Shown here piece after piece: positions 5,854 to 64,000 of a DNA stretch of 64,000 bases. Within the stretch, counting starts at the first letter, position 1. The number at the start of each line of letters is the position of its first letter. Position numbers and translations under genes: made by a program. The notes beneath the pieces were generated by a model. It did not search any database, was not told the DNA's origin, and saw nothing but the letters and a program-made list of their open reading frames with translations. The stretch is from Bacteroidales bacterium (GTDB lineage: Bacteria > Bacteroidota > Bacteroidia > Bacteroidales > WCHB1-69): positions 84,539-148,538 of the forward strand of contig JAGCUN010000015.1 in NCBI GenBank assembly GCA_017962845.1, in the 5' to 3' direction.

Positions 5854-5868
5854 TCGTTTTAAAATGCA

Positions 5869-6918: not shown

Positions 6919-6963
6919 AAGGATTTTTCTGAAGTATTATCTCTTTTTTTGAAAATAATCTTG

Positions 6964-6971: not shown

Positions 6972-6976
6972 CAGCC

Positions 6977-7456: not shown

Positions 7457-7460
7457 CACT

Positions 7461-8484: not shown

Positions 8485-8498
8485 TTTTCTCTCTTTTT

Positions 8499-9272: not shown

Positions 9273-9329
9273 TTTTGATCTGATTTTAAATGACGAAAGA
9301 TAACGATGGTTTTTCTCTAATATTGTAGT

Positions 9330-9884: not shown

Positions 9885-9896
9885 ATCGTAAGTTTT

Positions 9897-12536: not shown

Positions 12537-12559
12537 TTCTGAACCACTCATTCCTGAAT

Positions 12560-12592
12560 AAAAAAACACCTCCACTGCGGAGGTGTTTTTTT
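12560..12592 (+). terminator. Rho-independent terminator
   Basis: A-run, stem CACCTCC, loop ACTGC, stem GGAGGTG, then a T7 run. Confidence 0.8.
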
Positions 12593-28381: not shown

Positions 28382-29281
28382 ATGAAAAAAATAGGCATAT
28401 TCTGGATGTTTTTGCTGATGGTTTTCTCACTTTCCGCACAAGATTTCCAGTGCCAGCTTTCTATCAATTCAACCGCTGTGGCAGGTTCTAACAGAAATAA
28501 ATTCAACACGTTACAGCAGGAATTGTACAAGTTTGTCAATGACCGTAAATGGTGTCAATATACGCTGAAGACCAACGAGCGAATCGAGTGCGCCATCATG
28601 ATCGTTCTTACTGGTGCTCAGGGTGATACCTATACTGGTGAGATGAACATCCAGCTCCAGCGCCCCATCTATAATACCAGTTATAAGTCCCCCGTCCTTA
28701 ATATGAAGGACAATGATATCAAATTCACTTATGAAGAAGGCACCCCGTTGGAATATTCTGAAAACCAGAACCTTTCCAACCTCACCTCACTGATAGCCTA
28801 CTATTTGAATATCTTTTTGGGATTGGATTTCGACACCTTTTCTCTCAATGGAGGTGACCCCTATTTTTCATTGGCTCAAGGCGTGGTAAATGCCTGCCAG
28901 AGCGCGACAGAAGCAGGATGGAAATCCTACGAAAACGCCCAGCGTAACCGCTACTGGCTGATGGAAAACCTGACCAATCCCACTTATAGCAAAATTCACG
29001 ATTTCTTGTACAAATACCACCGTCTGGGCCTCGACATGATGTCTGAATCTGTGGACGTGGGCCGCGCCTCTATTTTGGATGCTATCAGAGATTTACAGAA
29101 AGTAAATTCCCAAAAATCAAATCTTTACATTGTTCAGATTATGGTGCAGGCAAAAGCTGACGAGATTGTCAACATCTTCAAAGAAGCTACCCCGGTGGAA
29201 AAAACAGAGATCATCCGCTTAATGAAACAAATCGATCCCTCCAATTCTGCCAAATATAATACGATTAATCAATCTAACTAA
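28382..29281 (+). CDS. DUF4835-like exported protein
   Basis: 299-aa ORF with a signal peptide, located between coaBC and recN as in other Bacteroidota (call rests on synteny). Confidence 0.65.
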   Translation: MKKIGIFWMFLLMVFSLSAQDFQCQLSINSTAVAGSNRNKFNTLQQELYKFVNDRKWCQYTLKTNERIECAIMIVLTGAQGDTYTGEMNIQLQRPIYNTSYKSPVLNMKDNDIKFTYEEGTPLEYSENQNLSNLTSLIAYYLNIFLGLDFDTFSLNGGDPYFSLAQGVVNACQSATEAGWKSYENAQRNRYWLMENLTNPTYSKIHDFLYKYHRLGLDMMSESVDVGRASILDAIRDLQKVNSQKSNLYIVQIMVQAKADEIVNIFKEATPVEKTEIIRLMKQIDPSNSAKYNTINQSN

Positions 29282-39100: not shown

Positions 39101-39912
39101 GTTATACTGGTGCATATCCGTCCACTTATTATTCATACGACAATATCGACTTCGGTACGGTTCAGGGTTTCACGGTCAGCTACGACCTCCGCAGCAACAA
39201 GAATGTGACCCTCCGCGCCAGCTATACCCTCCAGTTTGCTAAAGGTACTGGTTCCAGCGAAACTTCCAGCTTGGCCATCATCCAGTCCGGCCAGCCGAAC
39301 CTGAGAACTCTTACCAACCTGAGCTTCGACCAGCGTCATAAATTGAGCGCTAACCTTGACTATCGCTTCGGCTGGGGTCCCCAATATAACGGTCCTAAGA
39401 CCCAGAAGGTAACCAAAGAAGGAACGACCAAAGAAATTAATTGGTTAGAAAACTTTGGTGTTAACATCAACTTCTCCGCAGGTTCAGGTCTCCCGTACAG
39501 CCGTTCCAGCAAACCTTACTCCACCATCGTTAGTGCCGGTAAGAGCCAGCTCTCAGGTACAATCAATGGCTCTAACATGCCTTGGATTTATCAATGTGAT
39601 ATTCGTATTGACAAAACCTTCATCTTCGCTCTCAAGAAAGATAAAGAATCTGGTAAGCCGATCAAAAGAGGTTTCCTCAACATCTATCTTGACGTGATGA
39701 ATCTCTTCAATTTCAAGAACGTGATTTATGTCTATGAATACACTGGTAATGCTGACGATGATGGTTACCTTACCGCTACTGAATACCAACAGCAGATCAA
39801 TTCACAAGTTGATGTCTCTGCTTACACCAACTATTATAGAATGAGAGTTGCGAACCCGTATAACTACACTATGCCTACCCGCGTGCGTTTGGGTGTTAAC
39901 TTCTCCTTTTAA
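36184..39912 (+). CDS. Oversized TonB-dependent-receptor-like outer-membrane barrel with a carboxypeptidase-regulatory-like N-domain
   Basis: 1242-aa ORF with signal MVKKLLLTLLAVILCSSFALGQ. It has a CarboxypepD_reg-like segment (GTIKGTVKDHTGVALGYINVSL...GKYQLHGVAAGTYDLVF), a plug-like segment (SVRGNRSDGQKTVIDGMTV...IEQVELIQGGIPAEYGD) and an OMP-type C-terminus (GVNFSF). Confidence 0.85.
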   Translation: MVKKLLLTLLAVILCSSFALGQGTIKGTVKDHTGVALGYINVSLKKEGLDVNYTMTDAEGKYQLHGVAAGTYDLVFDATLNQCGKTYEIKGIKYNGQTMIQDAKINCDVTVLDVDFSVVYQRPLIDVDGTATTTILDADDVRKQPGHDVTAAISTAAGVTAIDGKMQSVRGNRSDGQKTVIDGMTVRGTGGVSMASIEQVELIQGGIPAEYGDGNSFTIITTKGISKDLHGSVEFMGALDGYNNFLGSVSLTGPLAKPKIQGEPARVGFLLTGDISYDKDASPAQGGTWRATQEAIDYLIQNPYRYSPTEFGAHYSNAEYMQAENFKKQRVRDNAGQLNYLIQAKLDFLIGEKKAINLSIGGMYEFTRYKNWGITSALFNAQNNSQTQINTWRVNARWQHRIQPKNDSIIKNIMYNINVNYTHYDTWTRDMRHKTNLFEYGHIGYYKTTKARSFVRDSITIDGITLYDVNILANIYDSIVDYSATPWGSNDESLISNPDLVPYVTTFTNAYSPQTIYDYFGVVPYNKTLYQQFGALLNGDSPESVYSMYSAPGSVSSGYNKSEESQIGANASLSLTIKDHDIKLGYIFEKRASRYFGVAPYGLWTLMRSSANYHISELDKDHPYLIGEDTVLYDRLFDAEAQTTFDRNLRKSLGLDPNGTDWIDIDNMSPDQFSLSMFSPEELFNGGSAYISYYGYDYTGTKKYTKKTDINDFFNKTDENGDKLYNVGAYEPVYMAMYIQDKFSINTMMFNVGIRVDRFDANQYVLKDPYLFREAYQVGELRGTFLDGNGHDMIASNAEDDWVVYVNQMDKTLDPENTNIIGYRKGHNWYDANGAIVTDPSSVLGATGGPILKNALDDKAVSKVEGGAFEKYAPAWSVMPRLSFSFNVSSKSLFYAHYNIITVRPTDLRLDPISYLWIEKLGPNQNNVINNPRLKPSKSIDYEIGFRQMIGETSAISLSAYYSEKRDQVQCYRYTGAYPSTYYSYDNIDFGTVQGFTVSYDLRSNKNVTLRASYTLQFAKGTGSSETSSLAIIQSGQPNLRTLTNLSFDQRHKLSANLDYRFGWGPQYNGPKTQKVTKEGTTKEINWLENFGVNINFSAGSGLPYSRSSKPYSTIVSAGKSQLSGTINGSNMPWIYQCDIRIDKTFIFALKKDKESGKPIKRGFLNIYLDVMNLFNFKNVIYVYEYTGNADDDGYLTATEYQQQINSQVDVSAYTNYYRMRVANPYNYTMPTRVRLGVNFSF

Positions 39913-39934
39913 TTAACCGTAGCAAAAAAATATC

Positions 39935-42900
39935 ATGAATATGAAAAATATATGTAAGATCTTATTTTTGGCAATTTTGCTGCTTGCCTCCGGTTCGCTG
40001 TCTGCTGAAAAATATAAAGGCTCAACAGCTGTTCCGAAGAGAGTACAAACACGTGCAGCTTCTACGTGTTTACCTGCAACAAACTCCAATGAGTTGATAG
40101 TCAACAATGTGAGAGCTTATTTGGAGACCAACGGTACGATGTGGTTCAACGAAATCGCACAATACGAGGTACCTTATGGTTCGGGTAAGACCTCCATGTT
40201 CGCTGCAGCACTTTGGATTGGTGGTAAGGATATCAATGACCAGTTGAAACTGGCCGCCGTTCGTTTCCGCCAAAGAGGTGATGACTTCTGGACAGGACCG
40301 CTGACCCTGAATGGAGCTTCTGTCACACAGGAGACCTGCGCCGCATGGGACAAACATTTCAAAATCACCCGCGCGGAGGTTGAAAACCATATCGCTAATT
40401 GGATGAACGCAGATTATGTGATGCCGAACAGCATCCGCAACTGGCCCGCCCACCCCATGGATCTTTCTGCAGGTCAGTCATATTATCTCGCTCCTTTCTA
40501 CGATAATGATGGCGATGGTGACTACAATCCTGAGAATGGTGACTATCCTTACTATGACCTCGACAATGAACTCTGTCCTTGGACTGAAAAGAACCGTGCC
40601 CTTGCCGCTGCCGACCAGCTTCCGAAAACTCCTGAAGAAAGAATGGGCATCTCTAAAGGTATGGTGTATGCAGACCATGTTCTCAAAGGTGATGCTACCC
40701 TTTATTGGATTTTCAATGATAAGGGAGGTCCCCACACTGAGTCCCAGGGCGAACCCATCGGTCTCGAAATCAGAGCACAGGCCTTCGGTTTCGCTACCAA
40801 CGATGAGTTAAACAACATGACTTTCTATTCATACGAAATCATTAACCGTTCAACTTTCGACTTGACCCAAACCTATTTCTCTCAGTGGGTTGACCCCGAT
40901 TTGGGTTATGCCGACGATGACTATGTGGGTTGCGATGTGGCCCGTGGTTTGGGTTACTGCTACAATGGTCGTAACATCGATGGTCAGGGCTTGGCTCAGC
41001 ACTATGGTTCTCAGCCGCCTGCGGTAGGTGTTGACTTCTTCCAGGGTCCCTACCTTGACCCCGATGGTTATGACAACCCCTCCTTCAATGGCCGCGCCGA
41101 ATTTGGTCCTACCATGGAAGGAAGCTGCGACATCGTCGCCAATGACGGTCAGCTTGGTCTTTTCAGCTGGGATCCCAATCCGGATGCTGAAGAAGAACAT
41201 GAAATGATTGTTGACTCCCTCGTCCTCATTCGTTCGGAAGCCATCAACGGTGTGAACTTTGGTGATGGTATTAAAGATAACGAACGTTTCGGTATGAGAA
41301 GATTCGTTTACCACAACAACGACAACTCTGTTGTGGGTGACCCTGACGTTGCTTATGGTTACTACAACATGTTGCGTGGTATTTGGGCAGATAACTTGAA
41401 AATGAAATATGGTGCTAACGCCCACCCGCTGAATGGTGCTACCGGTCCTGATTGCGACTTCATGTTCCCGGGTCTCTCCGATCCCTGTAACTGGGGTACC
41501 ATGGGTGTCGTTCCCGATGCTTCCACCTACAACAATTCCGCTGACGGTTGGACCGAAGCAGCTGTGGGTAATGCTCCCGCTGACCGCCGTTTCATGCAAT
41601 CAGCTGGTCCCTTCACCCTCCGCGCAGGTGCCGTCAACTACATTACTGTCGGTATTCCGTGGGCTCGTGCTACGAGCGGTGGCGCTCAGGCCTCCGTCGA
41701 CGCCCTGAAAATCGCCGACGACAAGTGCCAGTCACTTTTCGAAAACTGTTTCAAGGTTTTGGATGGCCCGGATGCTCCTACTGTTTACATCGAAGAATTG
41801 GAGAACGAGCTCATCCTCTATCTTACCAACCTCGAAACTAGCAACAACTATGCCGAAGGTTATGAAGAAGAAGACCCCACCATCCCCGTTGATCGTTTGG
41901 ATGAAACCATTACGGTATCTTATGATACGGTTTGGTGCACCATTTCAGGTATCGATACCTTCATTCTTCAAGCTCATGACGTTTCTACCTTTGATACCAT
42001 TCAGTTTGACAATAAATATCATTTTGAAGGTTATATGATTTATCAGTGCGCCAGCGCAGACGTGAGTGTTACTGATATCGGTGACTTGAACAAAGTACGT
42101 CTGATTGCCCAGTGCGATATTCAGAACGGTATCACTCAGCTGGTGAACTGGATCCATGATGACGCTATCGGAACCTCCGCTCCTCATGAAATGGTAAGAG
42201 GTGAAGACTTGGGTATTCGTCACTCCTTCGTGGTTACAGAAGATAAATTTGCAACCACCTCTACTCAGTTGGTTAACCACAAGAAATATTACTTCCTCGT
42301 TCTGGCCTACGCTCAGAACAACTACTGGCCCTTCTCTATTGAAGAGAACTCCGACCACGGCTTGACGGGTCAGAAAACCACCTTCCTTGCAGGTCGTCGT
42401 AATATTGGTGATCAAGAGAATAGCGGTAGCCCGTATGTGGGCATTCCTCACAATCCGACTCCTGAAAACGGAGGTACCGTGACTAATTCCGTCTATGGAA
42501 CCCAGCCTATGATTACTCGTATCGAAGGTCAAGGAAACGGTGGATTCTATCTCGATATGACCGATGAGTGCCGTGACGAGATCCTCAAAAACGGCCGCAT
42601 CGACCAGATTACCTATTTGAATGACCATGGTCCGATCAATGTTAAGGTTGTCAATCCTCTGAAGATTCAGCCTTACGACTATGTAGTACGTTTCATTCCT
42701 TCAGACACGGCTACATTAGATGTTACTCCTGAAGATACTTGGGTATTGGAAGTTGTGGATGAAAACGGTAACGTGAAGATGGATTCGCTTGGTTTCCCCA
42801 TGCAGTACGATGCACAGACTTCTATCTCTATCAATAATGAGCAACTCTTCCTTGACCTCGGTCTTTCTCTGACTATTTTGGATTACAACTTTGCTATCCA

Positions 42901-44614
42901 TCAAGATAATCTTGCAACTTATGTTGCCAATAATGGTGGTTATACTTATAAGAATGTGTCCACTCACGCTCAGGTTGATTTCCTCGGTTCTGAAATCACC
43001 TATGCTGATGAGAGCAAGCCTTGGTTGGGCGGTGTAGTAGATAATGAAGGTGACCTTCCGGATAACTGGATCCGAAGCGGTATTCAGGAGGCTGGTCCCT
43101 GGGATGAAGCATCTGGTACACAAAATGGTGTCGAAGATGAGTATGCCAAGTGGAAAACAGAAGACTTCTTCTTCCTGATGCCCGGCGGTACCCTTTCAAG
43201 CAGTACTTGGTCAAGCCGTGCTTGGAAAGACCCCAACCAGCAATTTGAAAAAGTAATCAATGGCACATGGGCTCCCTACGTGTTGAGTTCTCCGTATTAT
43301 GGAGGCCCCATGGCTCGTTTCATCACGCCGGATAATAACCGAGACGAAGCAGCTAACGCACCTAGTCCTATGTATTGGGATATTAATAAGATGAAAACTA
43401 CGCAAGGTTCTCCTGGTTTCAATCAAACTATGACCAACCTTTATTCCGTAGATATCATCCTCACTCCTGATAAAGACAAATGGACTCGTTGCGTTGTACT
43501 CGAATCCTGCGACGATGCCACCAAGTCAGAAGGCGGTGCCCTTTGCCATGAACCTCGTAAACATGCATCTGTCGATAAGAACGGTAACCCCGACGGTACA
43601 GGTGAAGGTATGGGCTGGTTCCCGGGCTATGCCATCAACGTCGAAACGGGTGAACGTCTGAACATCATGTTTGCTGAAAACTCATCAGATCCTGAAAACA
43701 ACGGTAATGATATGCTTTTCAACCCCACCAATGTTTTTGCTGTTGACCGTGATGGGAATACGATAGAACAAGCAGTCTATGACTACTGGTTTGCTAATCG
43801 TCCTGACTTATACAATGATTTGTATTTCAATCCTTGCTGGGGTGGTAAACACTTTGTTTATATTGTTGGAAGCTCAGGTAATACGAACTCTGTTTATTAT
43901 CGTACCAACTCTATGAATCGTAACTTCGACTCTCAGTACGACTGTGGAGCTTACGATGAAGGTCAATGGTTGATGAATAAATTCAATACCTTTGTTGGAA
44001 ACTCTAATACTGGAGACCAGACGAGAATGAATAGAAAAATGCAGCTCTTCAACAATGTGATGTGGACGAGCATCCCGATGCCCGCTTCCATGCACGAAGA
44101 TGAATGGCTTTCCAATGATGTTACCATCAAAATCCGTGTGAGCCGTCCCTATAAACGCTATTCATCAGGTATGAATATGGGACCTGAAAATCCCCAGAAC
44201 GACAACTTCCCGATGTATAGCTTCACTACCAAAAACATTGCGGTACAGCACAATGTTGCAGAAACTCACCAGAGTATTTTGGACAAAATCAATATTGTTC
44301 CGAATCCGTACTACGGCTATTCAACCTACGAAGGTTCAGCCCTGGAGACCTACGTCAAGATCGTCAATCTGCCCACCTATGAAGATGGTGTAGAGGGTGC
44401 TGTTACCATTTCCATCTTCACCGTCAGCGGTGTCATGGTTAGAAGAATCACCAAGGGTGGTTCAGATACCTTCGTGGATTGGGATTTGAAGAACTCTGCG
44501 AACATTCCGATTGCTAGCGGCATTTACATCATCCATGTGAAAGCTCCTGGAATCGGCGAAAGAACCTTGAAGTTCTTCGCGGGTATGCGTCCTACTGACT
44601 TGAATGCGTTCTAA
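39935..44614 (+). CDS. 1559-aa secreted protein of unknown function with an atypical T9SS-CTD/FlgD-Ig-like C-terminal beta-sandwich tail
   Basis: Signal MNMKNICKILFLAILLLASGSLSA and acidic loop DNDGDGDYNPENGDYPYYD. The tail (44291-44611) reads NIVPNPYYGYSTYE...ISIFTVSGVMVRRI...WDLKNSANIPIASGIYIIHVKA. I saw no C25 peptidase-like GHG motif. Confidence 0.8.
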   Translation: MNMKNICKILFLAILLLASGSLSAEKYKGSTAVPKRVQTRAASTCLPATNSNELIVNNVRAYLETNGTMWFNEIAQYEVPYGSGKTSMFAAALWIGGKDINDQLKLAAVRFRQRGDDFWTGPLTLNGASVTQETCAAWDKHFKITRAEVENHIANWMNADYVMPNSIRNWPAHPMDLSAGQSYYLAPFYDNDGDGDYNPENGDYPYYDLDNELCPWTEKNRALAAADQLPKTPEERMGISKGMVYADHVLKGDATLYWIFNDKGGPHTESQGEPIGLEIRAQAFGFATNDELNNMTFYSYEIINRSTFDLTQTYFSQWVDPDLGYADDDYVGCDVARGLGYCYNGRNIDGQGLAQHYGSQPPAVGVDFFQGPYLDPDGYDNPSFNGRAEFGPTMEGSCDIVANDGQLGLFSWDPNPDAEEEHEMIVDSLVLIRSEAINGVNFGDGIKDNERFGMRRFVYHNNDNSVVGDPDVAYGYYNMLRGIWADNLKMKYGANAHPLNGATGPDCDFMFPGLSDPCNWGTMGVVPDASTYNNSADGWTEAAVGNAPADRRFMQSAGPFTLRAGAVNYITVGIPWARATSGGAQASVDALKIADDKCQSLFENCFKVLDGPDAPTVYIEELENELILYLTNLETSNNYAEGYEEEDPTIPVDRLDETITVSYDTVWCTISGIDTFILQAHDVSTFDTIQFDNKYHFEGYMIYQCASADVSVTDIGDLNKVRLIAQCDIQNGITQLVNWIHDDAIGTSAPHEMVRGEDLGIRHSFVVTEDKFATTSTQLVNHKKYYFLVLAYAQNNYWPFSIEENSDHGLTGQKTTFLAGRRNIGDQENSGSPYVGIPHNPTPENGGTVTNSVYGTQPMITRIEGQGNGGFYLDMTDECRDEILKNGRIDQITYLNDHGPINVKVVNPLKIQPYDYVVRFIPSDTATLDVTPEDTWVLEVVDENGNVKMDSLGFPMQYDAQTSISINNEQLFLDLGLSLTILDYNFAIHQDNLATYVANNGGYTYKNVSTHAQVDFLGSEITYADESKPWLGGVVDNEGDLPDNWIRSGIQEAGPWDEASGTQNGVEDEYAKWKTEDFFFLMPGGTLSSSTWSSRAWKDPNQQFEKVINGTWAPYVLSSPYYGGPMARFITPDNNRDEAANAPSPMYWDINKMKTTQGSPGFNQTMTNLYSVDIILTPDKDKWTRCVVLESCDDATKSEGGALCHEPRKHASVDKNGNPDGTGEGMGWFPGYAINVETGERLNIMFAENSSDPENNGNDMLFNPTNVFAVDRDGNTIEQAVYDYWFANRPDLYNDLYFNPCWGGKHFVYIVGSSGNTNSVYYRTNSMNRNFDSQYDCGAYDEGQWLMNKFNTFVGNSNTGDQTRMNRKMQLFNNVMWTSIPMPASMHEDEWLSNDVTIKIRVSRPYKRYSSGMNMGPENPQNDNFPMYSFTTKNIAVQHNVAETHQSILDKINIVPNPYYGYSTYEGSALETYVKIVNLPTYEDGVEGAVTISIFTVSGVMVRRITKGGSDTFVDWDLKNSANIPIASGIYIIHVKAPGIGERTLKFFAGMRPTDLNAF

Positions 44615-44646
44615 CAGATTGATTAACTGCAAAAAAATTAGAGACT

Positions 44647-45840
44647 ATGAATAAGTTCCAAAAAACATTAATGATTTGCACGCTGATTGGCCTCTTTTGT
44701 GCAATGTCGGTCAATCTGTATGCCGGTAATAGAGACCGTTCCGGTCAGGCAGGTGCACAGCATCTTCTGATTGACCCGTGGGCTCGCTCCACTGGTTGGG
44801 GAACCGCCGGTGTTGCTGAAATCCGCGGTTTGGAAGCTATGTATTCCAATATCGGTGGAATGGCTTTTGTCAACAAAACCGAATTGGCCTTCTCCCATAC
44901 CCGCTACTTAGTAGGTTCGGGCGCAGGTATTGGTATTAGCTCTTTTGCTATCGCCCAGCACCTTCGTTCTACTGATAAAGATACTAAACGTGTACGCGAC
45001 TTTGGTGTCTTGGGTCTCTCTTTCTTCACCATGGGCTTCGGTAACATTGAAGTCACTTCTGAAGAATTACCAGAAGGTAACCAAGGTACTTTCTCTCCGA
45101 AACTCTCCTATCTTTGCTTGCACTATGCCAAGAGTTTCAACCAGTACATTCACGGTGGTGTTTCTTTGAAAGTGGTCACTGAAACCGGTGCTGATGATGC
45201 AAAAGCTACGGGTTTTGCTATTGATGCAGGTGTTCAGTATCTCACGGGCGCTTTCCAAAACTTCAAGATTGGTATCACCTTGAAGAATATCGGACTTCCG
45301 ATGCATTACAAAGGTGATGGTTTTGGCGTGAGAGCTGTGGCTGGAGACCTCGATTGGGAACAGACCCTTGAGAGCCGTTCTGCTTCTTACGAGCTTCCTA
45401 CCATGTTGGTATTGGGCCTCTCTTACGACTTCCTAATCTGGGGTAAAGAATATGAGGGTTGGGATAAAATCGACAAAGTTGATGAAGGTCTCACCCGTGA
45501 CGATGCCGCCCACAGAATTACGTTGGCAGGTTCTTTCACCGCTAACTCTTTCTCCCGTGACATCGCCACCGTCGGTATTGAATATGGGCTTGGCCAAATT
45601 TTCATGATCCGTGCTGGCTATAGCGTAGAGCTGGGTAAGGGAATGTTCAAGACAGAAGAACAAACTACTTGGTACACCGGTCCCTCACTGGGCGCATCTC
45701 TTGGTATTCCTATGATGAGCAAGAAAAAAATGGAAGAAAAGGGCACCAAGAATCCCCCGAGACTTTATCTTGACTACTCCTATCGTTTCACGAATAGATG
45801 GGGTGGAAACCACTGCGTTGGTTTGAAACTCGCCCTTTAA
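44647..45840 (+). CDS. PorV/PorQ-family-like outer-membrane beta-barrel protein
   Basis: 397-aa ORF with a signal peptide. GAQHLLIDPWARSTGWGTAGVAEIRGLEAMYSNIGGMAF follows the PorV N-terminal pattern (LxIxPxxRxxGxGxAGVA...N..g.aF), and the size is typical of PorV. Confidence 0.65.
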   Translation: MNKFQKTLMICTLIGLFCAMSVNLYAGNRDRSGQAGAQHLLIDPWARSTGWGTAGVAEIRGLEAMYSNIGGMAFVNKTELAFSHTRYLVGSGAGIGISSFAIAQHLRSTDKDTKRVRDFGVLGLSFFTMGFGNIEVTSEELPEGNQGTFSPKLSYLCLHYAKSFNQYIHGGVSLKVVTETGADDAKATGFAIDAGVQYLTGAFQNFKIGITLKNIGLPMHYKGDGFGVRAVAGDLDWEQTLESRSASYELPTMLVLGLSYDFLIWGKEYEGWDKIDKVDEGLTRDDAAHRITLAGSFTANSFSRDIATVGIEYGLGQIFMIRAGYSVELGKGMFKTEEQTTWYTGPSLGASLGIPMMSKKKMEEKGTKNPPRLYLDYSYRFTNRWGGNHCVGLKLAL

Positions 45841-52804: not shown

Positions 52805-52858
52805 CCGTATTCAAAAAATTTCATGTATTTTTGCCACATTAACCTAAAAACAGAAAAA

Positions 52859-53812
52859 ATGAATCGGTATAGATGGGCCTGCACACTGGGAATCGTGGCA
52901 ATAAGTATATTGCTCTTAGGCTCTTGCAAAAAAAGAGTGACTCCGCCCGTTGAGCAGCCAAGAGCATCCGCCGAATGTCCGTTGAGCACGATTCCTTCCG
53001 ATTTTGCCGATTTGGATGCCTCCACCCCAACCTATCCTCTGCCGAAAGCATTTTTCAACGACTTCATGAAATACGCCCAACAATATGAAGGCACCCATAT
53101 CACCATCCCCGCACAGCTTCCCCAAGACTGGGTGCTGTTGTGCCGAGAACCCCTTCCTGCCAGTCAGGAGCTGTGGCTTATACAGTCCGCCGACAAAGAC
53201 TGGACTTACCTCCTTGTGACAGCCGGTCAGCATGTGCGAGACGCTCTTCCAATAGCCCTTGACCTTGCCTCTCCAGGCGATGTGATAGAGACGGAAGTGT
53301 GGACCTGGCACCGAGATGAAGATGGCGCCTTCCTCGTGACCAAACATTATGAAAAACGTCCCGATGCCAATGACACCACCCAGCGTCAGCGTAAACTTGA
53401 AGCCCTCGACCGGTATGTGGTTAGCGAGTCGGGCCAGTTCAAATGCACCCCGCAGAGCCTGACAGAAGGCACTCCCTATCAAGCGGTCATTCTCTTTAAC
53501 TTGGCATCAGAGAGGCCAGATTCTTGGTACGATATGATGAGCTATATCGCACCCTACTGTGAGGAAAATAATATCTATTTCGCGACAGTGGCCTCCGCCT
53601 CTGAAGACTTGCACCACGTGGTCATAGAAGATTATCAGCTTAACTACATCACTACTATTGACCTTGTCCCTTTGCTTGACAACGTTGAACAAGGTCTGGT
53701 CCTGCTGCAGAATGGAGCAGAACCCCGAGTTGAGAACTATTCCGATAACGAACGTTATCTTCAAATGAAAATCAGAAATTATTTTAATTCTATCAGCAAT
53801 ATAAATTTGTAA
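52859..53812 (+). CDS. Hypothetical lipoprotein
   Basis: The start is placed at MNRYRWACTLGIVAISILLLGSC (lipoprotein signal). No recognisable motif. Confidence 0.5.
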   Translation: MNRYRWACTLGIVAISILLLGSCKKRVTPPVEQPRASAECPLSTIPSDFADLDASTPTYPLPKAFFNDFMKYAQQYEGTHITIPAQLPQDWVLLCREPLPASQELWLIQSADKDWTYLLVTAGQHVRDALPIALDLASPGDVIETEVWTWHRDEDGAFLVTKHYEKRPDANDTTQRQRKLEALDRYVVSESGQFKCTPQSLTEGTPYQAVILFNLASERPDSWYDMMSYIAPYCEENNIYFATVASASEDLHHVVIEDYQLNYITTIDLVPLLDNVEQGLVLLQNGAEPRVENYSDNERYLQMKIRNYFNSISNINL

Positions 53813-55856: not shown

Positions 55857-55900
55857 TTATATATATACATATTTCTTTTTGTTGAAATATGATACGGATA

Positions 55901-55935
55901 CATGCTCCCCTCTGAAGGGGGAGCATGTTTTTTTT
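55901..55935 (+). terminator. Rho-independent terminator
   Basis: CATGCTCCCC, loop tctgaag, then GGGGAGCATG (10-bp perfect stem), followed by T8. Confidence 0.85.
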
Positions 55936-56034
55936 CGGGGAGAAAAAATTGCAAAAAAAATTTATCAAAAAAGGGGTGTTAATTAAAATCAAAGTAAAAT
56001 TTGTAAATTCTTGAATAAGAAAAAAATAGGAAAT

Positions 56035-56055
56035 TGTTGAAAACCTGTTGAAAAG
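56035..56055 (+). promoter_or_regulatory. Direct repeat of TGTTGAAAA (2 copies, 12-nt period) upstream of the giant surface-protein gene
   Basis: aatTGTTGAAAAccTGTTGAAAAgtc. The same 9-mer recurs at 3109 and four times in 14384-14508. Confidence 0.3.
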
Positions 56056-56126
56056 TCATTTTTTGTTAGAAACCACAATGATTTCAAAAAAAATAATGGA
56101 AGTGAATGTACATCGAGAAATTTTTG

Positions 56127-56134
56127 TATTTTTG
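56127..56134 (+). promoter_or_regulatory. Bacteroidota -7 box TATTTTTG (distal candidate promoter of the giant gene)
   Basis: Exact TAnnTTTG match 158 nt upstream of the ATG at 56293. Confidence 0.4.
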
Positions 56135-56235
56135 CAAGTTCATATATTAAAACGAAAAATAGGGTTTGAATTTTGAATTCGACTGAAACATTTATTGGAA
56201 AAACGAGTATAACTGATTTAATATCAGTGTAGTTA

Positions 56236-56243
56236 TAAATTTG
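56236..56243 (+). promoter_or_regulatory. Bacteroidota -7 box TAAATTTG (proximal candidate promoter of the giant gene)
   Basis: Exact TAnnTTTG match 49 nt upstream of the ATG at 56293. Confidence 0.4.
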
Positions 56244-56292
56244 AATTTTGGAAAGAAAATAAAAATAAATAGTAATAATTAAATTCTAAGCA

Positions 56293-59200
56293 ATGAAAAA
56301 ATTTACGATTTTTTTCCTGATGGTGTTCATGTTTTTAGGATATCAGGCAAAATGCGAGACGGTTTTGGTGTCGTCGGGAGACGATGCGACCGCCGGTCGT
56401 AACCATGCCTCCTGGATTTTACACCATGGTAGTGTCACTCCGAATGCCTCGGGAATGATTGCTTCTGATTATACAAGCCGCTCAGGCGGAGTGTATGAGA
56501 CCAGTCGTGTGAATGCCACACAGAGCTTGCAGGTGCATATCGAAGGTCCTTCGTATGCCTGCTCCTCAGCAATGGTGACATTGCATGCAGTTGTGTCTGA
56601 CGATCCCGTCACGGCCAACACCACTTACTCCTATACTTGGATGAGTAGTACCAACCATGGTGCCGGTTATAGCGGCGCCGCGGGTGCTACCAACAACCAG
56701 GAGCTCGTGGTCAACATGTCAAGCACTAGTCCTGTCATGTATTACAAGGTGATCGTACAGCGCTACGAGGCAGGTGCCTGCCAGGGTCCCGCCGACACAT
56801 CGGCTGTGTTCACCCTCACCCGCGTGGCGCGTGGCACCGTTACCGTAACGGCCGCCCCGACTACGGCATGCTCCCAACAAACCCTGACCGCCACCACCAA
56901 CAGTCCCGCAATGGTGGCAAGATGGATTTGGTTGAAGGACGGTAACTATATTGCCAACACCGGAACCAACAACACGTATGTGGCTACCGCAGCCGGTAAC
57001 TATAAGGCCGTGGCTGAGTATGAGGGTTCGGATATGTGTAACGATACCTCCGAAGCAGTAACTGTGAGCTTCTCGGCTTCTATACTTCATCTTGCAGCCT
57101 CAAATGCCACGGGGCTCCCTGCTCCCATGGGCAATGACTTTGTCTGTCTTGGAGGTCAAGTGCGCTTAAAAGCAACCAACGGTGCAGCTCCTTATAGCTT
57201 CTATCGCGGTACCACCCTCATCGGTACTTCCAACGACTCCATCTTTGATGTTCCCCCTACTGCAGGAACCATTACCTATTCTGTAGTTGATGCAGGTGGC
57301 TGCTCCGCAGATACCACCTTTACCGTTTTGGATGGTGCAGGGATAGAAATTTATTCCAATTCAGGTACGCATTTCTGCCAGCCCACCTCCATCGCTCTTA
57401 CCATTTTTTCATCAGCAACGCAGTTCAATGCTCTGGGCCCCGATGCCTATCATTGGATAAAAGATGGTAATGTATGGTCTGATGGTACTTCCATTTCAAC
57501 GTTCTCATCAGCTGTTCCCTCCATCAGCGATGCGCCGCATACTTATACTCTCGAAATCTATGATCCCGGCCGTAACTGTTTTTACAGAAGTAATACTCTT
57601 GAAATCTATGTTTATCCCCAACCGACTGCCACTTTGATCGCCGATTCAGTATGCTCAGGTAATGCAGCTACTTTGACCGTTGAGACGGATGGCTATTTGG
57701 GAGATAACCCCACTTATACTTGGAGCACCAATGCTCACGGAACGACAGCAACAGCTGTTACGGACGAACTCACCAGTGACGCTACAGTTAGTGTCACCAT
57801 TGTCGGTCTCACCCCCACTCAGTCATGCTCCGTTACAGCTTCCACCACCGTCAAGGTTGTGAACACCGTGGCATCCGGCGAAATTACCGCCGAACCCGCC
57901 CTGGTCTGCAACGGCGACTCTGTGCTGTTCTCAGCCGAGGCGATCGGTGCAGGCTTCACCAACCCCACCTACACTTGGGGAGGTGACGCCAGCGGCAGCG
58001 CTGCTACCGCCCTCGTCACAGGAGTGACCGCTCCGGTGACTGCCACCGTGACCGTCACGGGCGGCGACGCACCGTCCACCGCATGCTCGGTGACCGCCAC
58101 CAAGACCGTCGAGGTGACTACCGCACTGCCCACCGCAGCCAGCGTGACCATCCACACCTACCTCCAAGGTCAGCCCGTGGATGCACTTGGTGCTTGTATC
58201 GGTGGTGCCATTGATGTGGTCGCCACGGGAATCACCCCCAGCGATGAGTATATATATACATGGTATAGAAACGGTATCGAACTTCCTGCCCACGACACGG
58301 CCTTCACCGACAACCTTGAAGACCTCGGCGAAGCTGATCCGTTCTATTCATTGATCTATACTCTCGTCATCTCCCATATCAACGGTTGTGGTTCGGTGTC
58401 AGTAGAAAGCGATACCTTGGGCGTCTTCACTCCCGGTGAGATCACCCTCAGCAGCGACCGCCGTGTCTGCTCGGGCACTGATGTCACCGTCGTGGCCATG
58501 AGTCCTTACCTCCCCATTATCGGTGCTCAATATGCTTGGTTTTTGGATGGAAATGAAGTCACAGGACCCACCATGGGGCCAGGTTATAGTACACAACTCT
58601 TCTCCGCAGCTGATGGCTTGACCGCTCAGTTGGCTCCCCATGTTATCACTGCAGTGGCTTATTACGACCCGATGACCTATGCCGGTTGTACCGCATTGGC
58701 TTCCGCTACTATCGAGATTCAAGTCGATACGCTGCCGACGGTTAGAATCGTGGCAAGCGACTCCGTCCTTTGCGAAGATGGTGAGGTTACCTTGACTGCT
58801 ATCCCCTCCACTGACGATATTCCTGCAGTAGTTTATGCTTGGAATACTCTCGACTCTACTGCCACCATCACTGTTGATGCTGCTGGTACCTACGTGGTCA
58901 ACCTCACTCAAATTTATTCGAACCCCTCTTGTACCGCTACCGCTTCTTACGAGGTGAAGACCGCTACCAAGCCCACCGTTACTCTCGCTGCCGATCACGA
59001 CACCATCTGCTCTGGCACTCAGGTCACACTGACCGCCACCGCCACTTTCGATCCCGCAGCTGGCGACTCTACCTATACTTGGTATAGAAACGGTGTTGAA
59101 ATCGCTACCACCACCACGAACACTTATACTGAAAGCCTGACCACTGGTGCGCAGGTTTCTACATATATATATAATGTAGTAGCTGGACAGACCACCAGCG

Positions 59201-62200
59201 GCTGTGTTTCTGAACCCGCCGCCGATACGGTTAGCGTTTATCCTGCTCCTACGGTTATGATCAACGGTGACAATATTCTTTGTTCCGCTGGTACAGTTAA
59301 TCTGACTGCTGAAGCTAACGATACTATTGCTGGTGTTACTTACACCTATTCTTGGAGATTGGATAATGCTTCTGTAGGTACAGGTAAAACTTATAGTACT
59401 GCTCTCTCTCTCCGCGACAATCCGTACATCTTTACGGTTCAGATCACCAATGAAGCTACTGGATGTGTCACTACCAGCGCAGAGTTCCCGGTTTATGTTG
59501 ACACGCTTGGTAGCATTACCGTTAACGCTTCTGAAGCTGAAATCTGCGTAGGTGGAGATGTGGTCTTGACCACCACCTTCCTCGGTTCTTCTAATAACGA
59601 TATTATTTATCAGTGGTATCACACTGCCATCGATGACGCCAATATAATTGCTGGTGCTAATGCCAACACTTATACTGCCACAAATGTTACTACAGCTACC
59701 ATTTATTACTTGCAAGCTACTCAGATCTCTACTTCTTGTGCAGTGAGCGGATATGCTAAAGTTGAAGTTAGCGCAGTTCCTAGTGTAACTCTTGCACTGA
59801 ACTCTGCCGAAACGATTTGTTCTGGTGGACAAGCTTCACTCACCGCTACTGCTACTCAAGGTGTATCAGGAATTCCTTATACTTACACTTGGTATAGAAA
59901 TGGTGTTGAAATTGACGGCGCTAACGGAGCTTCTCTTACCGAGACCCTTACCGCCGAAAATACAAGCACGATTTATGCTTACACAGTGGTTGCTTCCCAG
60001 GAAGCCAGCGGCTGTGAGTCTCAGCCCAGCGATCCCAAGAAAGTGACCGTGGTTCCCGCTCCTTCTGTTTCAATTGAAGGTGATGCTTTGATTTGCGCTG
60101 TTCCGGGTACGGTTACCTTGACGGCTAACATCAATGATACGATTTCTGGTGTGACTTACAATTATCAGTGGAGAAGAAACAATGCTGATATCGCTGGTGC
60201 CACCACCGCTACCCTTTCTGATGCGGTGACTTACCAAGAGGAACCGTATATTTATACAGTGGAAGTTGAAAATACCACCACGGGTTGCCGCACTATCAGT
60301 GAAGCTTATCCGGTGTATGTCGATACCCTTGCAGGTGTTGTGGTCTCAGCAGATGATACCATCATTTGTCAAGGTGGTGATGTGGTTCTTACCGCTAATC
60401 TCGTTGACAACAATGCCCAGAACCTCACTTATCAGTGGTATAGCGACGATAGCTACACCCAGCCGATTGCTGGCGCTACACAAAGCGAGCTCACGGTTCA
60501 GAACGTGACCGCCACCACTACATATGGCGTGGTTGTTACTCAATCTACCACGGGTTGCAGCGTTAAGAGTAACCGTGAAATCACGGTCAACAATGATCCT
60601 CTCGTTGAGAGCGTGACCATCACTCCTGCTGCTGATACCGTGTGTACAGGTACTGCCATTACCGTTGAAGCTACTATGAATACGGGTACTGGTTATGGCG
60701 ACGGCACTGATTACACCTACACTTGGTACAGAAATGGTGTTGAGGTGGCTGGTGCTAACGCTGCTACTCTGAATGATGTGGTTACCGCAGAAGGCATCAT
60801 CACTCCTTATATCTATACCGTGGTCGCTACTCAGGCTTCCAGCGGCTGTGCCTCTACGGTTGCTAAGTATGACACGGTCAAGGTGGTTCCGATGCCGACA
60901 GTGGCAATCAATGGAGACAACCTCCTTTGCGCAGCAGGTACGGTCAATCTGACAGCTGTTGCTAATGATACTATTCCGGGTGTTGCTTACACCTATTCTT
61001 GGAGAATGGATAATGTGACTGTTGGTACAGGAAATACCTATAGCACCACTCTCGATCTCCGCGATAATCCTTATATCTTTACGGTTCAGATTACCAATGC
61101 CACTACGGGTTGCACTGCTACCAGCGGTGAATTTCCGGTCTATGTTGACTCTCTCGGCAACATCACGGTTAGTGCTTCTGAAACCGAAATCTGCGAAGGC
61201 GGTGATGTCGTTCTGACCACTACCTTCTTGGGTGCTGCTAATTCAGATATCGTTTATGAATGGTACACCGGCTCCATCAGTCCTACTACCTTGATTTTGG
61301 GAGCAAGCGACAATACTTATACTGCTTCTAATGTCACCACGACTACTACTTATTATGTACAAGCTACCCAAATTTCTACTGGCTGTGTGGTCAACGGTAA
61401 TGTGAAGGTGAATGTCAATCAGGATCCGAAGCCTGTACTTACTATGACAACTCCGGAAGTGATTTGCTCCGGCACGCAGGCTTCCTTCACCGTTACTTCT
61501 TCTCTCGGTGTGGATGGTATGCCGTATACCTATACTTGGTATAGAAACGGTGTTGAGATTGAGGGTGCTACTGTCGCTTCTCTTACCGAAGAACTCACCA
61601 CCGAAGGTGAAAGCACGCTCTATTCTTACACTGTTGTGGCTTCACAGGATGCTAGCGGTTGTGTGTCTCAACCCAGCGATCCCCAGAAAGTGACTGTGGT
61701 TCCCGCTCCTTCTGTTTCAGTTGAAGGCGACGCTTTGATTTGCTCTGATCCAGGTACTGTTACTTTGACCGCCCATATCAATGATACGGTGTCGGGAATG
61801 ACCTATAATTATCAGTGGAGAAGAAACAATGCTGATATCGCGGGTGCTACCAGCGCCACGATGACGGAGACGGTTACTTTGCAGGATGAGCCTTATCTCT
61901 ATACAGTGGAAGTGGTGAACCTCACTACGGGTTGCCGCACTATCAGCGAAGAATATCCTGTGTATGTGGATACTTTCGCAAGCGTTATTGTTACGGTTGA
62001 TGATTCAGTTATCTGTAATGGCGGTGAGGTTACGCTGACTGCTAATATTGGTAACTATAACACTCAAAATCTTACCTACCAGTGGTTTGATGATGCAACT
62101 TATACCCACGCTATCCCGGGTGCTACCCAGCGTGAACTCACGGTTCAGAATCTTACCACTACTACCACTTACGGAGTCCAAGTGGTTCAAACTACTACGG

Positions 62201-64000
62201 GCTGTAATGCTAAAGGCAATAAGGAAGTCACTGTGAAATCTGATCCTGTTGTCCAGTCTGTGGTTATCACACCTTCTACTGATACGGTTTGCACAGGTTC
62301 AACGATTACTGTTACCGCTACTATGGAAACGGGTACCGATTATGGTGATGGCAATGCTTACACCTATACCTGGTATAGAAATGGCGTAGAAGTTGAAGGC
62401 TCTCACGAGGCTACCCTCACTGAGGTTGTTACCGCAGAAGGTTTGGTTACTCCTTATATTTACACTGTAGTAGCATCTCAGCCCTCTAGCGGTTGTGCTT
62501 CTACCACTTTCGTTTATGATACTGTCTTTGTCCGCCCGATGCCGACCGTTACCATCGAAGGTGATCCGATCGTTTGCACCGGTACAAAGAACGTCCAACT
62601 CCAGGCTCGCGTGAACGATAACTTCGCCACAGCTAACTTGCATTATCAGTGGAGATTATTCAATGCTAATATTGGTACTGACGATGCCGAATTGTTGGAT
62701 ACCCGTAACGCTAGCGACAATGAGTACGTTTATAATGTAATCATTACGGATGCTACTCTCGGTTGCCAGGCAGTCAGCGAACCCTTCTCTGTCAGAGTGG
62801 ATACCGCTGCTGTTATTACCTTCCTGCCTGTTGAACCCATCTGCGTTGGTGGTACGGCTACTATCACAGCTAGCTTGAATGATTACAATGTTGATGACTA
62901 TACCTTCCAGTGGTATGATGGTACCACACCTATCGCAGGTGCTACCTCCCTCACTTACACCACCCCGGTTTTGGATGCCACCACTACTTACACCTTCAAG
63001 GCTATCCGCACCGCTTCTGGTTGCGAAGGTTCTGCTGATGTTGATGTAACTGTGGTTTCTGATCCTGTTTCAAAATTCACGGTTAATCCCAAGAACATCT
63101 GTCAGGGTGGCCAAGTTACCTTGAATTCTACTGTTGTTATTCCTGCTGGTATCACCAATCCTAACATCCATTACTTCTGGTACAGAAATGGTCAGTTGCT
63201 GGAAGGTGTTGACACAGCATCTTTCGTTGACAATCCGACCATCGAAGATATGGATTCCAACATTGTTGTTTACTCTCTCTATGTGACCTTCGACAACGCT
63301 GGTTGCGCTTCCAACCTCACTTATGATACTGTAAACATTTATCAGAATCCTACTATCACCGTTACTGGTGATCAGCTGCTCTGTGGTAATGCAGATCAGA
63401 ATGTGGTCAACTTGACAGCTACTCTGAACGACACTATCGCTGGTACTTACACTTTCATGTGGCGTGAAGATAACGTCAATACGGATGTGACCACCCGCGT
63501 ATATAGCCAGGCTAAACAATATCGTCAATATCCTTATGAATATACCGTTGTTGTAACTGGTCCTAACGGCTGTTCTGTTGTGAGCGAGCCTTATCTCGTT
63601 TATGTCAACGATACACTCGTTGTGGGTGTTGATGCCACCACCGACAGAGTTTGCGCTGGTGAGGAAGTGATTCTTACCGCAGCTGTTGCTGACAACTACG
63701 AAGCTCTCACCTACAGATGGTACACCGTTGAGGGCGCCACCGAGACTGAGCTTCCCAATGAATACAACAACACTCTTACTACTTATCCGACTGCTACCAC
63801 CCACTACCGTGTGAGAGTGATGCAGAACAATACTTTCTGTACTGCCGTTGGCGATACTACCATCACGGTAGTAACTGCGCCGAACCTCGCTCTCGAAATC
63901 CTGCCTGCTGGCACCGATTCTATCTGCGAAGGCGGTCAGATTACGCTGGCTTTGAATCCGGCCACTGCTCCTGCCGGTACTTACAGCTGGTATAGAAACA
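56293..64000 (+). CDS. Giant repetitive cell-surface protein (Ig-like/SprB-type repeat adhesin), 5' part only; the ORF runs off the right edge
   Basis: Own translation from the ATG at 56293 (MKKFTIFFLMVFMFLGYQAK...) stays open for 2569 codons to the window end. It is absent from the ORF track because it has no stop. There are about 28 modules of about 90 aa, each with iCxGG..v.LtA ... Y.Y.W(Y/R)..g ... GC. The WYRNG motif is in frame at 58261, 59080, 59890, 60724, 61537, 62371, 63178 and 63988. Confidence 0.9.
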   Translation, partial: MKKFTIFFLMVFMFLGYQAKCETVLVSSGDDATAGRNHASWILHHGSVTPNASGMIASDYTSRSGGVYETSRVNATQSLQVHIEGPSYACSSAMVTLHAVVSDDPVTANTTYSYTWMSSTNHGAGYSGAAGATNNQELVVNMSSTSPVMYYKVIVQRYEAGACQGPADTSAVFTLTRVARGTVTVTAAPTTACSQQTLTATTNSPAMVARWIWLKDGNYIANTGTNNTYVATAAGNYKAVAEYEGSDMCNDTSEAVTVSFSASILHLAASNATGLPAPMGNDFVCLGGQVRLKATNGAAPYSFYRGTTLIGTSNDSIFDVPPTAGTITYSVVDAGGCSADTTFTVLDGAGIEIYSNSGTHFCQPTSIALTIFSSATQFNALGPDAYHWIKDGNVWSDGTSISTFSSAVPSISDAPHTYTLEIYDPGRNCFYRSNTLEIYVYPQPTATLIADSVCSGNAATLTVETDGYLGDNPTYTWSTNAHGTTATAVTDELTSDATVSVTIVGLTPTQSCSVTASTTVKVVNTVASGEITAEPALVCNGDSVLFSAEAIGAGFTNPTYTWGGDASGSAATALVTGVTAPVTATVTVTGGDAPSTACSVTATKTVEVTTALPTAASVTIHTYLQGQPVDALGACIGGAIDVVATGITPSDEYIYTWYRNGIELPAHDTAFTDNLEDLGEADPFYSLIYTLVISHINGCGSVSVESDTLGVFTPGEITLSSDRRVCSGTDVTVVAMSPYLPIIGAQYAWFLDGNEVTGPTMGPGYSTQLFSAADGLTAQLAPHVITAVAYYDPMTYAGCTALASATIEIQVDTLPTVRIVASDSVLCEDGEVTLTAIPSTDDIPAVVYAWNTLDSTATITVDAAGTYVVNLTQIYSNPSCTATASYEVKTATKPTVTLAADHDTICSGTQVTLTATATFDPAAGDSTYTWYRNGVEIATTTTNTYTESLTTGAQVSTYIYNVVAGQTTSGCVSEPAADTVSVYPAPTVMINGDNILCSAGTVNLTAEANDTIAGVTYTYSWRLDNASVGTGKTYSTALSLRDNPYIFTVQITNEATGCVTTSAEFPVYVDTLGSITVNASEAEICVGGDVVLTTTFLGSSNNDIIYQWYHTAIDDANIIAGANANTYTATNVTTATIYYLQATQISTSCAVSGYAKVEVSAVPSVTLALNSAETICSGGQASLTATATQGVSGIPYTYTWYRNGVEIDGANGASLTETLTAENTSTIYAYTVVASQEASGCESQPSDPKKVTVVPAPSVSIEGDALICAVPGTVTLTANINDTISGVTYNYQWRRNNADIAGATTATLSDAVTYQEEPYIYTVEVENTTTGCRTISEAYPVYVDTLAGVVVSADDTIICQGGDVVLTANLVDNNAQNLTYQWYSDDSYTQPIAGATQSELTVQNVTATTTYGVVVTQSTTGCSVKSNREITVNNDPLVESVTITPAADTVCTGTAITVEATMNTGTGYGDGTDYTYTWYRNGVEVAGANAATLNDVVTAEGIITPYIYTVVATQASSGCASTVAKYDTVKVVPMPTVAINGDNLLCAAGTVNLTAVANDTIPGVAYTYSWRMDNVTVGTGNTYSTTLDLRDNPYIFTVQITNATTGCTATSGEFPVYVDSLGNITVSASETEICEGGDVVLTTTFLGAANSDIVYEWYTGSISPTTLILGASDNTYTASNVTTTTTYYVQATQISTGCVVNGNVKVNVNQDPKPVLTMTTPEVICSGTQASFTVTSSLGVDGMPYTYTWYRNGVEIEGATVASLTEELTTEGESTLYSYTVVASQDASGCVSQPSDPQKVTVVPAPSVSVEGDALICSDPGTVTLTAHINDTVSGMTYNYQWRRNNADIAGATSATMTETVTLQDEPYLYTVEVVNLTTGCRTISEEYPVYVDTFASVIVTVDDSVICNGGEVTLTANIGNYNTQNLTYQWFDDATYTHAIPGATQRELTVQNLTTTTTYGVQVVQTTTGCNAKGNKEVTVKSDPVVQSVVITPSTDTVCTGSTITVTATMETGTDYGDGNAYTYTWYRNGVEVEGSHEATLTEVVTAEGLVTPYIYTVVASQPSSGCASTTFVYDTVFVRPMPTVTIEGDPIVCTGTKNVQLQARVNDNFATANLHYQWRLFNANIGTDDAELLDTRNASDNEYVYNVIITDATLGCQAVSEPFSVRVDTAAVITFLPVEPICVGGTATITASLNDYNVDDYTFQWYDGTTPIAGATSLTYTTPVLDATTTYTFKAIRTASGCEGSADVDVTVVSDPVSKFTVNPKNICQGGQVTLNSTVVIPAGITNPNIHYFWYRNGQLLEGVDTASFVDNPTIEDMDSNIVVYSLYVTFDNAGCASNLTYDTVNIYQNPTITVTGDQLLCGNADQNVVNLTATLNDTIAGTYTFMWREDNVNTDVTTRVYSQAKQYRQYPYEYTVVVTGPNGCSVVSEPYLVYVNDTLVVGVDATTDRVCAGEEVILTAAVADNYEALTYRWYTVEGATETELPNEYNNTLTTYPTATTHYRVRVMQNNTFCTAVGDTTITVVTAPNLALEILPAGTDSICEGGQITLALNPATAPAGTYSWYRN
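58970..62265 (+). repeat. Two tandem ~1.65-kb (548-549 codon, six-module) super-repeats inside the giant gene, flanked by more diverged copies
   Basis: Anchor motifs recur at offsets of 1644-1647 nt. For example, the 33-nt exact match ttatcagtggagaagaaacaatgctgatatcgc occurs at about 60162 and about 61809, and cccagcgatccc.agaaagtgac.gtggttcccgctccttctgtttca occurs at about 60025 and about 61672. Confidence 0.85.

Follow-up and report, generated by a model that had tools for sequence, protein, structure and literature searches.

We analyzed a window of 64,000 nucleotides (nt) from a Bacteroidales bacterium (contig JAGCUN010000015.1 of assembly GCA_017962845.1, positions 84,539 to 148,538), in which a giant gene begins at position 56293 on the forward strand and stays open to the window end. 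Our data suggest that this gene probably encodes a type IX secretion system (T9SS) cargo protein with a type A sorting domain, and that its product is a surface fiber or adhesin built of immunoglobulin (Ig)-like repeats, with a stem like that of grappling hook protein A (GhpA). This reading rests on the open reading frame (ORF), its modules and their Ig fold, homology to GhpA, the gene length and C terminus in orthologs, the OmpA-family gene that adjoins it there, and the T9SS genes of the window. From these data we infer secretion, the mode of anchoring, oligomeric state, fiber length, and adhesive function.

Translation of positions 56293 to 64000 (+) gave 2569 codons with zero stops up to the window end, in agreement with an earlier note made on this DNA. 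With ~48% GC, at which ~4.5% of random codons are stops, the chance of an open run of this length is ~e^-118. An in-frame TAA at 56287-56289 lies two codons 5' of the ATG at 56293, which is therefore the first possible start. The earlier note had remarked that the ORF track shows no plus-strand ORF in this frame and had correctly put this down to the lack of a stop inside the window, since the lister omits ORFs running off the end. The ORFs that are listed across the region comprise only a plus-strand fragment of 80 amino acids (aa) and antisense ORFs, including 58399-59832 (-; 477 aa) and 63070-63804 (-; 244 aa). The start codon and a predicted Sec-type signal peptide occupy 56293-56355 (+), corresponding to residues 1 to ~21 (MKKFTIFFLMVFMFLGYQAKC). 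In the N terminus (MKKFTIFFLMVFMFLGYQAKCE), an n-region with KK precedes a hydrophobic core of 13 residues (mean Kyte-Doolittle value of 2.8), after which comes Y-Q-A. This assessment was heuristic, being made from the n-region, hydrophobic core, and cleavage-site pattern, and it agrees with the signal peptide proposed previously. The same type of N terminus recurs in P0001 and P0002 and in the intact family members P0145, P0283, and P0290, and the pattern MKKF[TM]IF[FL]L... is conserved in intact members of the family. Residues 22-78 (56356-56526, +) form a nonrepeat segment that contains no cysteine-pair module and had no family match in a Pfam scan of the window protein. An AlphaFold model of residues 22-350 had a mean predicted local distance difference test (pLDDT) score of 52, with values of <50 for model residues 1-158. 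By analogy with C-terminally anchored T9SS cargo, residues 22-78 would be the distal tip.

The remainder of the product is an array of Ig-like modules (56527-64000, +), 28 in all and ~91 aa each; the window end truncates the final module, with the ORF still open. The window product contains 56 Cys residues and 16% Thr. From Cys90 on, the Cys spacing alternates between ~64 and ~27 residues, which yields 28 modules with a period of ~91 aa, each having one Cys near its start and one near its end; this reproduces the previous count of about 28 two-cysteine modules of about 90 aa. The modules are grouped in A/B/C triplets of ~274 aa. Seven consecutive three-module units of this kind (58156-63885, +; alignment A2) were delimited at 58156-58968, 58969-59778, 59779-60600, 60604-61425, 61426-62250, 62251-63060, and 63061-63885, with 70% identity between units 2 and 4. 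Their consensus, tICxG..v.LtA, YtYtW(Y/R), and sGC, contains the motifs that had been read from the sequence before (iCxGG..v.LtA, Y.Y.W(Y/R), and ..GC). Two copies of a higher-order repeat of 1647 nt (549 aa, six modules) were located at 59260-62504 (+) with 73.6% DNA identity by blastn against the related contig L001, and autocorrelation of the protein sequence peaked at an offset of 549 aa, with 26% self-identity. Tandem Repeats Finder found nothing in the window DNA because the copies are ≤74% identical and the 1647-nt period is over its limit.

The assignment of the modules to the Ig fold was made by both domain searches and modeling. Pfam Ig_7 (PF19081) scored 217.7 bits against a gathering cutoff of 27.3 in 11 stretches of the window protein; Ig_3 and Ig_2 scored 94 and 73 bits, a K319L-like PKD match was marginal, and NCBIfam had no match for the window fragment of the protein. 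The AlphaFold model of one three-module unit (pLDDT of 91) was all beta and comprised three tandem beta-sandwich domains. The Bacteroidota O-glycosylation motif D-[ST]-[AILVMT] was twofold enriched in the window protein, with 32 sites versus 15.8 ± 3.6 expected. The earlier note had described the modules as Ig-like or SprB-type. The Ig part of that description holds, but the SprB part does not, since neither the SprB repeat (PF13573) nor HYR (PF02494) had a match at E ≤ 1 in the 2,569-aa window protein. The same two models had no match in 7,954 aa of ortholog sequence (7,007 aa of L002 plus a 947-aa tail from L013); a domain scan of this sequence found Ig- and PKD-type domains only, with no enzyme, lectin, or SprB repeat domain. 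These results bear on the possibility that the gene encodes a gliding adhesin of the SprB type, which the gliding machinery would carry along the cell. As such an adhesin would be, the protein is a giant T9SS cargo with Ig-like repeats from a member of the Bacteroidota, and Pfam describes Ig_7 as "CHU_C associated," i.e., often found with type B sorting domains, yet the PF13573 repeat had no match in either the window protein or the ortholog sequence.

Comparison with solved structures pointed to GhpA of Aureispira sp. CCB-QB1 (PDB 9flp, 9fls, 9flu, 9flw, 9flx, 9fly, and 9g8b). When the three-module model was searched against the PDB with Foldseek, the top seven matches were all GhpA fragments (E values of 1.8e-13 to 9.4e-12), with template modeling (TM) scores of 0.59-0.66 for the top six and 0.47 for the base fragment and with identities of 20-24%. 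A profile of the seven units (A2) matched GhpA with an E value of 1.6e-94 and 319.5 bits (hmmsearch), in ~25 stretches along the neck and stem that have the Cys, Y.W, and GC motifs in common with the window modules. Judged from the predicted model and the sequence profile, the GhpA stem repeats are the closest solved structure to these modules.

The extent of the gene past the window was reconstructed from related loci. Metagenome contig L001, with 98.8% DNA identity, carries the giant gene, which contains one frameshift there and extends beyond 4,800 aa. In species-representative genomes, a scan located seven loci in Bacteroidales metagenome-assembled genomes (MAGs), most of them labeled rumen derived, the best of which has 80% DNA identity to the window. 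At four of these loci, in rumen MAGs, the frame is open over the whole 21 kb, amounting to 7,007 codons, 155 Cys residues, and ~77 modules. L009 carries the gene as 1,806 plus 7,544 aa, divided by a single TAA, and its positions 1-10000 keep the gene order of window positions 46-56 kb (GreA, HIT, transketolase N, LptF/G, GT4, DXS, a 329-aa hypothetical protein, GlnA, and DUF7935). L013, which in its overlaps has 99% identity to the end of L006 and ~80% identity to the ends of L002-L005, puts the stop codon 3,762 nt beyond the L002-L006 loci, which agrees with the distance in L009. On the basis of the L002-L006 loci, the L013 overlap, and L009, we estimate that the whole gene is ~28.1 kb long and encodes ~9,400 aa (~1 MDa) in ~100 modules, and that the window holds its first 27%. 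By ortholog length, the 3' end would lie ~20 kb past the window edge. The earlier note had written of adhesins that can exceed 5000 aa; the product is indeed giant, but that figure was an underestimate for a gene of ~9,400 codons.

Two other loci illustrate how such genes appear in public data. The bovine rumen metagenome contig L010 (10,137 nt) contains blocks 96-99.7% identical to L002 in reversed order and is called as nine short genes. It was rejected as a path to the 3' end because the block order is scrambled; it is a scrambled short-read assembly of repeats and an illustration of the fragmentation of these genes. L011 has eight minus-strand gene calls with no Pfam match at 1-9710, over DNA 75-80% identical to the open plus-strand giant ORF of L007. 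In all probability these calls are spurious and lie antisense within the giant gene; the long antisense ORFs of the window at 58399-59832 and 63070-63804 resemble them.

The C-terminal sorting domain that had been predicted to lie beyond the window was found in collinear orthologs. TIGR04183, the NCBIfam model for the type A sorting domain (cutoff, 23 bits), scored 27.7, 34.8, and 31.9 bits on the C termini of L011, L012, and L013, respectively, and 26.6 and 23.0 bits on the family members P0142 and P0141. The ortholog C termini match only TIGR04183 and PF18962; the type B sorting domain models (TIGR04131 and PF13585, CHU_C) had no match in them at E ≤ 1, a second result at odds with a SprB-type product. 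A conserved family-specific region of ~220 aa precedes the type A sorting domain and has no match in Pfam or the PDB, and a sequence search of the PDB with the C-terminal 299 aa was negative. An exhaustive search of representatives with the C-terminal fragment P0138 returned 111 representative clusters at E ≤ 1e-30. Among these clusters are intact relatives of 4,000-7,700 aa (P0145 with 7,407 aa, P0283 with 7,683 aa, and others), which pair a window-like N terminus with an ortholog-type C terminus in one protein. Several cluster members carry the NCBI name [quoted passage not shown] e.g., MCR4857605.1, MBO7587792.1, and HPT52198.1. These relatives share the signal peptide motif, the Ig_7/Ig_3 modules, the ~220-aa C-terminal region, and a type A sorting domain ending in ...GTYFGRIxTGTNEIKTVKFVIVK, and differ from the window ortholog group in that the latter is longer (~9,400 aa). 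The giant gene is a very large member of a kind already generically named by NCBI. Our literature searches returned no experimental study of the giant family and no paper on the family in rumen Bacteroidales.

The window itself indicates that the host organism has a T9SS, because it encodes PorD, a PorV/PorQ-family protein, and a type A cargo protein. The PorD equivalog (DUF4835) lies at 28382-29281 (+) and scored 343.8 bits against a cutoff of 170, and the 397-aa PorV/PorQ-family protein lies at 44647-45840 (+) and scored 112.6 bits against a cutoff of 90. The other type A cargo, a 459-aa Por_Secre_tail protein, is encoded at 11157-12536 (+), with 54.2 bits against a cutoff of 27. Together with the TIGR04183 domain of the orthologs, these genes bear out the earlier proposal of a giant repetitive surface-protein gene in a T9SS-bearing member of the Bacteroidota. 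A protein with a PD40 beta-propeller and an OmpA domain is encoded at 15763-17727 (-); it scored 333 bits with the PorE model and 329 bits with CHU_0125, both short of the respective cutoffs of 600 and 620. No gliding (gld) genes were seen among the scanned ORFs of the window.

In all four loci with a visible downstream gene (4/4), the gene 3' of the giant gene encodes an OmpA-family protein of 503-536 aa (L011 19267-20877, L012 2252-3862, L013 4479-6071, and L014 3924-5435). The protein has its own signal peptide and, at the C terminus, an OmpA domain of the peptidoglycan-binding type. Mean column identity among three copies is 81% over the N-terminal 420 aa, which have no Pfam, NCBIfam, or PDB match and whose alternating patterns suggest a beta-barrel. 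A CxxC-containing segment (DTCNACD ... VPxCP) lies between the putative barrel and the OmpA domain. The PorE model matches the protein over the OmpA domain only, and in the sole copy scanned against Pfam, that of L011, there was no match to PorP_SprF (PF11751) at E ≤ 1. Genes further downstream vary between loci, which argues that the giant gene and the OmpA-family gene are functionally linked.

This neighbor completes the comparison with SprB. Type A cargo proteins are recognized by PorV and are attached to anionic lipopolysaccharide (LPS) in Porphyromonas, whereas type B cargo proteins such as SprB bind or depend on PorP/SprF-like partners (PMC9143113, PMC12618676). SprB, the 6,497-aa gliding adhesin of Flavobacterium johnsoniae, resembles the giant protein as a giant repetitive T9SS cargo that forms surface filaments. 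However, SprB combines PF13573 repeats with a sorting domain of type B and with SprF as its PorP-like partner, and we found none of the three for the giant gene. We therefore did not retain the gliding-surface filament put forward in the earlier note, given the lack of SprB repeats and a sorting domain of type A rather than type B, nor the sprF/porP-like partner gene that it expected beyond the window, where all four loci have the OmpA-family gene instead. On these results, including the PorP_SprF scan of the L011 neighbor, we regard a SprB-type gliding adhesin as extremely unlikely.

A second alternative is suggested by GhpA itself, namely, that parallel copies of the protein assemble into a rigid, hollow, GhpA-like grappling hook or spear that is anchored in the outer membrane by the OmpA-family protein and catches other cells or particles, instead of working as one flexible adhesin. 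GhpA, which is the closest solved structure and gives the strong profile match described above, is a 5,898-aa T9SS substrate with a signal peptide; its stem consists of 52 Ig-like repeats and is heptameric, disulfide stabilized, and probably O-glycosylated, and PorP- and PorE-like genes, the latter of OmpA type, lie downstream of it (bioRxiv 10.1101/2024.01.29.577165). The giant protein resembles GhpA in its signal peptide, its long run of ~90-aa Ig-like repeats with Cys, Y.W, and GC motifs, its C-terminal T9SS sorting domain, and a downstream gene with an OmpA-type domain, and this OmpA-family neighbor is conserved in the related loci. The sorting domain is of type A in the giant family. The two systems also differ. 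The giant gene is ~60% longer, with ~100 modules versus the 52 repeats of GhpA. No distinct N-terminal hook module of ~1,400 aa was recognized in the window protein, in which the Ig modules begin after residue 78 and the tip model is poor. The pair of GhpB (PorP) and GhpC (PorE) homologs was not found downstream, where there is one OmpA-domain neighbor only, and the Pfam scan of the L011 neighbor showed no PorP homolog (GhpB) beside the giant gene. The host of GhpA is a marine predatory member of the Saprospiria, in contrast to the anaerobic rumen Bacteroidales that carry the giant gene, which show no evidence of ixotrophy or of a type VI secretion system. Oligomeric state, moreover, is not readable from sequence. 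On balance, a GhpA-like multimer appears unlikely.

The giant protein can also be set beside the type A cargo proteins of Porphyromonas gingivalis (gingipains, etc.), with which it shares a Sec signal peptide and a TIGR04183/PF18962 domain and for which the expected route runs from PorV to the attachment complex (PMC9143113, PMC12618676). In contrast to the giant protein, with its ~1 MDa, Ig modules only, and a conserved OmpA-family neighbor, these cargo proteins are enzymes and adhesins of 300-2,000 aa with no dedicated neighbor gene.

The pattern of divergence is consistent with a surface protein that evolves rapidly yet remains constrained. Between the window and L001, the ratio of nonsynonymous to synonymous substitution rates (dN/dS) of the giant gene is 0.33. 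A tract of 330 nt at 57313-57642 (+), covering residues 341-450, is divergent from L001 (dS of 0.48 and dN of 0.11), and dS is 0.00-0.02 over the rest of the gene; the tract is therefore probably a recombination import within one Ig module. Compared with L009, the giant protein has 49-75% aa identity, whereas most flanking proteins have 87-96%. One of the flanking genes, encoding the 329-aa hypothetical protein (hyp329; 52823-53812), has 72% identity to its L009 copy and no family match.

Several points weigh against our interpretation of the gene as an exported type A cargo. The sorting domain was seen only in orthologs (~70-80% DNA identity) and family members, the window's own 3' end not having been recovered, and the distant intact members P0148 and P0151 fall just under the TIGR04183 cutoff, at 21.6 and 20.3 bits. 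The conserved OmpA-family neighbor is left unexplained by the type A route, which normally needs no dedicated neighbor. Expression, secretion, surface location, and binding are predictions from gene sequence. Furthermore, the frame of L001 shifts near codon 3,516, where a deletion at L001 ~10640-10670, not a multiple of three, has removed ~8 codons, and L009 has a single-base nonsense TAA at codon 1,807 (L009 15419-15421), at the conserved Tyr of YNYQW. Some copies may be broken, or the breaks in L001 and L009 may be assembly errors.

The last observation raises the question of whether the gene is decaying or nonfunctional, or whether its product is released, for example as truncated N-terminal fragments devoid of the sorting domain or as soluble or vesicle-borne fibers. 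The L001 frameshift and the L009 nonsense codon, both in orthologous genes, would be in keeping with this, and release, not anchoring, is the fate of many Flavobacterium type A cargo proteins. Lesions of this sort, an in-frame stop or a frameshift, had been named in the earlier note as evidence that would tell against its reading; none occurs in the window. In contrast to what decay would predict, no break interrupts the frame over 7,007 codons in four MAGs or over the 2,569 codons of the window, the dN/dS is 0.33, and there are intact relatives of 7,400-7,700 aa. The break at L013 ~2843-2852 is only a run of N, i.e., a scaffold gap. Misassembly of repeats may account for the others; L010 is visibly scrambled. 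Decay or release is consequently very improbable in our view.

The region 5' of the giant gene is an AT-rich intergenic stretch of 436 bp (55857-56292, +), as read from the sequence. In this stretch, at ~55900-55936 and immediately past the DUF7935 gene, a T-run comes after a perfect, GC-rich hairpin (acatgctccccctc...gggggagcatgt), an arrangement that looks like an intrinsic terminator of that gene. With a terminator at this position, the giant gene would be its own transcription unit. A motif search found TAnnTTTG, the -7 promoter motif of Bacteroidota, twice, and these matches (56127 and 56236) are candidate promoter elements. Elsewhere in the window, a 456-aa antisense ORF (11205-12575) overlaps the Por_Secre_tail gene at 11157-12536 and is probably spurious. 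A three-gene cluster at 36184-45840 (+) encodes a 1,242-aa TonB-dependent-receptor-like protein with CarboxypepD_reg, a 1,559-aa protein, and the PorV/PorQ-family protein. The 1,559-aa protein has no Pfam match and a subthreshold type A sorting domain (19.4 bits versus 23), and the cluster may encode a further T9SS cargo together with a PorV-like partner of its own.

If the giant gene encodes a type A cargo, as we favor, its product could reach the cell surface as follows. The Sec signal peptide would direct the protein to the periplasm; the T9SS would then recognize the C-terminal type A sorting domain, encoded beyond the window, and export the protein through the outer membrane. If it behaves like other type A cargo, the fiber would be passed to PorV. 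Anchoring might be covalent, to surface LPS after removal of the sorting domain, or the fiber might be held with the help of the OmpA-family protein. The ~100 tandem two-cysteine Ig-like modules would extend from the cell as a fiber of a few hundred nanometers, at ~4 nm per Ig domain, and the N terminus encoded in the window would be the distal, presumably binding, end. A likely role would be adhesion to plant particles or other cells. A bolder proposal, which we put forward as speculation and consider unlikely, is that rumen Bacteroidales build a new class of T9SS appendage. This appendage would be a GhpA-like, possibly multistranded, rigid fiber of ~0.4 micrometer, made of a 1-MDa protein and, its type A signal notwithstanding, anchored by a dedicated peptidoglycan-binding OmpA-type protein of the outer membrane rather than, or besides, by LPS; it would tether cells to plant fiber or capture other microbes.

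The family, whose C-terminal architecture has 111 representative clusters, shows that stem repeats of the GhpA type are widespread among uncultured Bacteroidales of gut and rumen. Genes of this kind drop out of annotation through contig run-off, assembly splits in repeats, and spurious antisense ORFs. At ~9,400 residues, the protein would exceed the two characterized giant T9SS cargo proteins, SprB (6,497 aa) and GhpA (5,898 aa). A type A signal in company with a conserved OmpA-family neighbor does not fit the simple rule that equates type A with LPS anchoring and type B with a PorP partner. For the organisms that make them, such fibers could matter for attachment to rumen plant particles.

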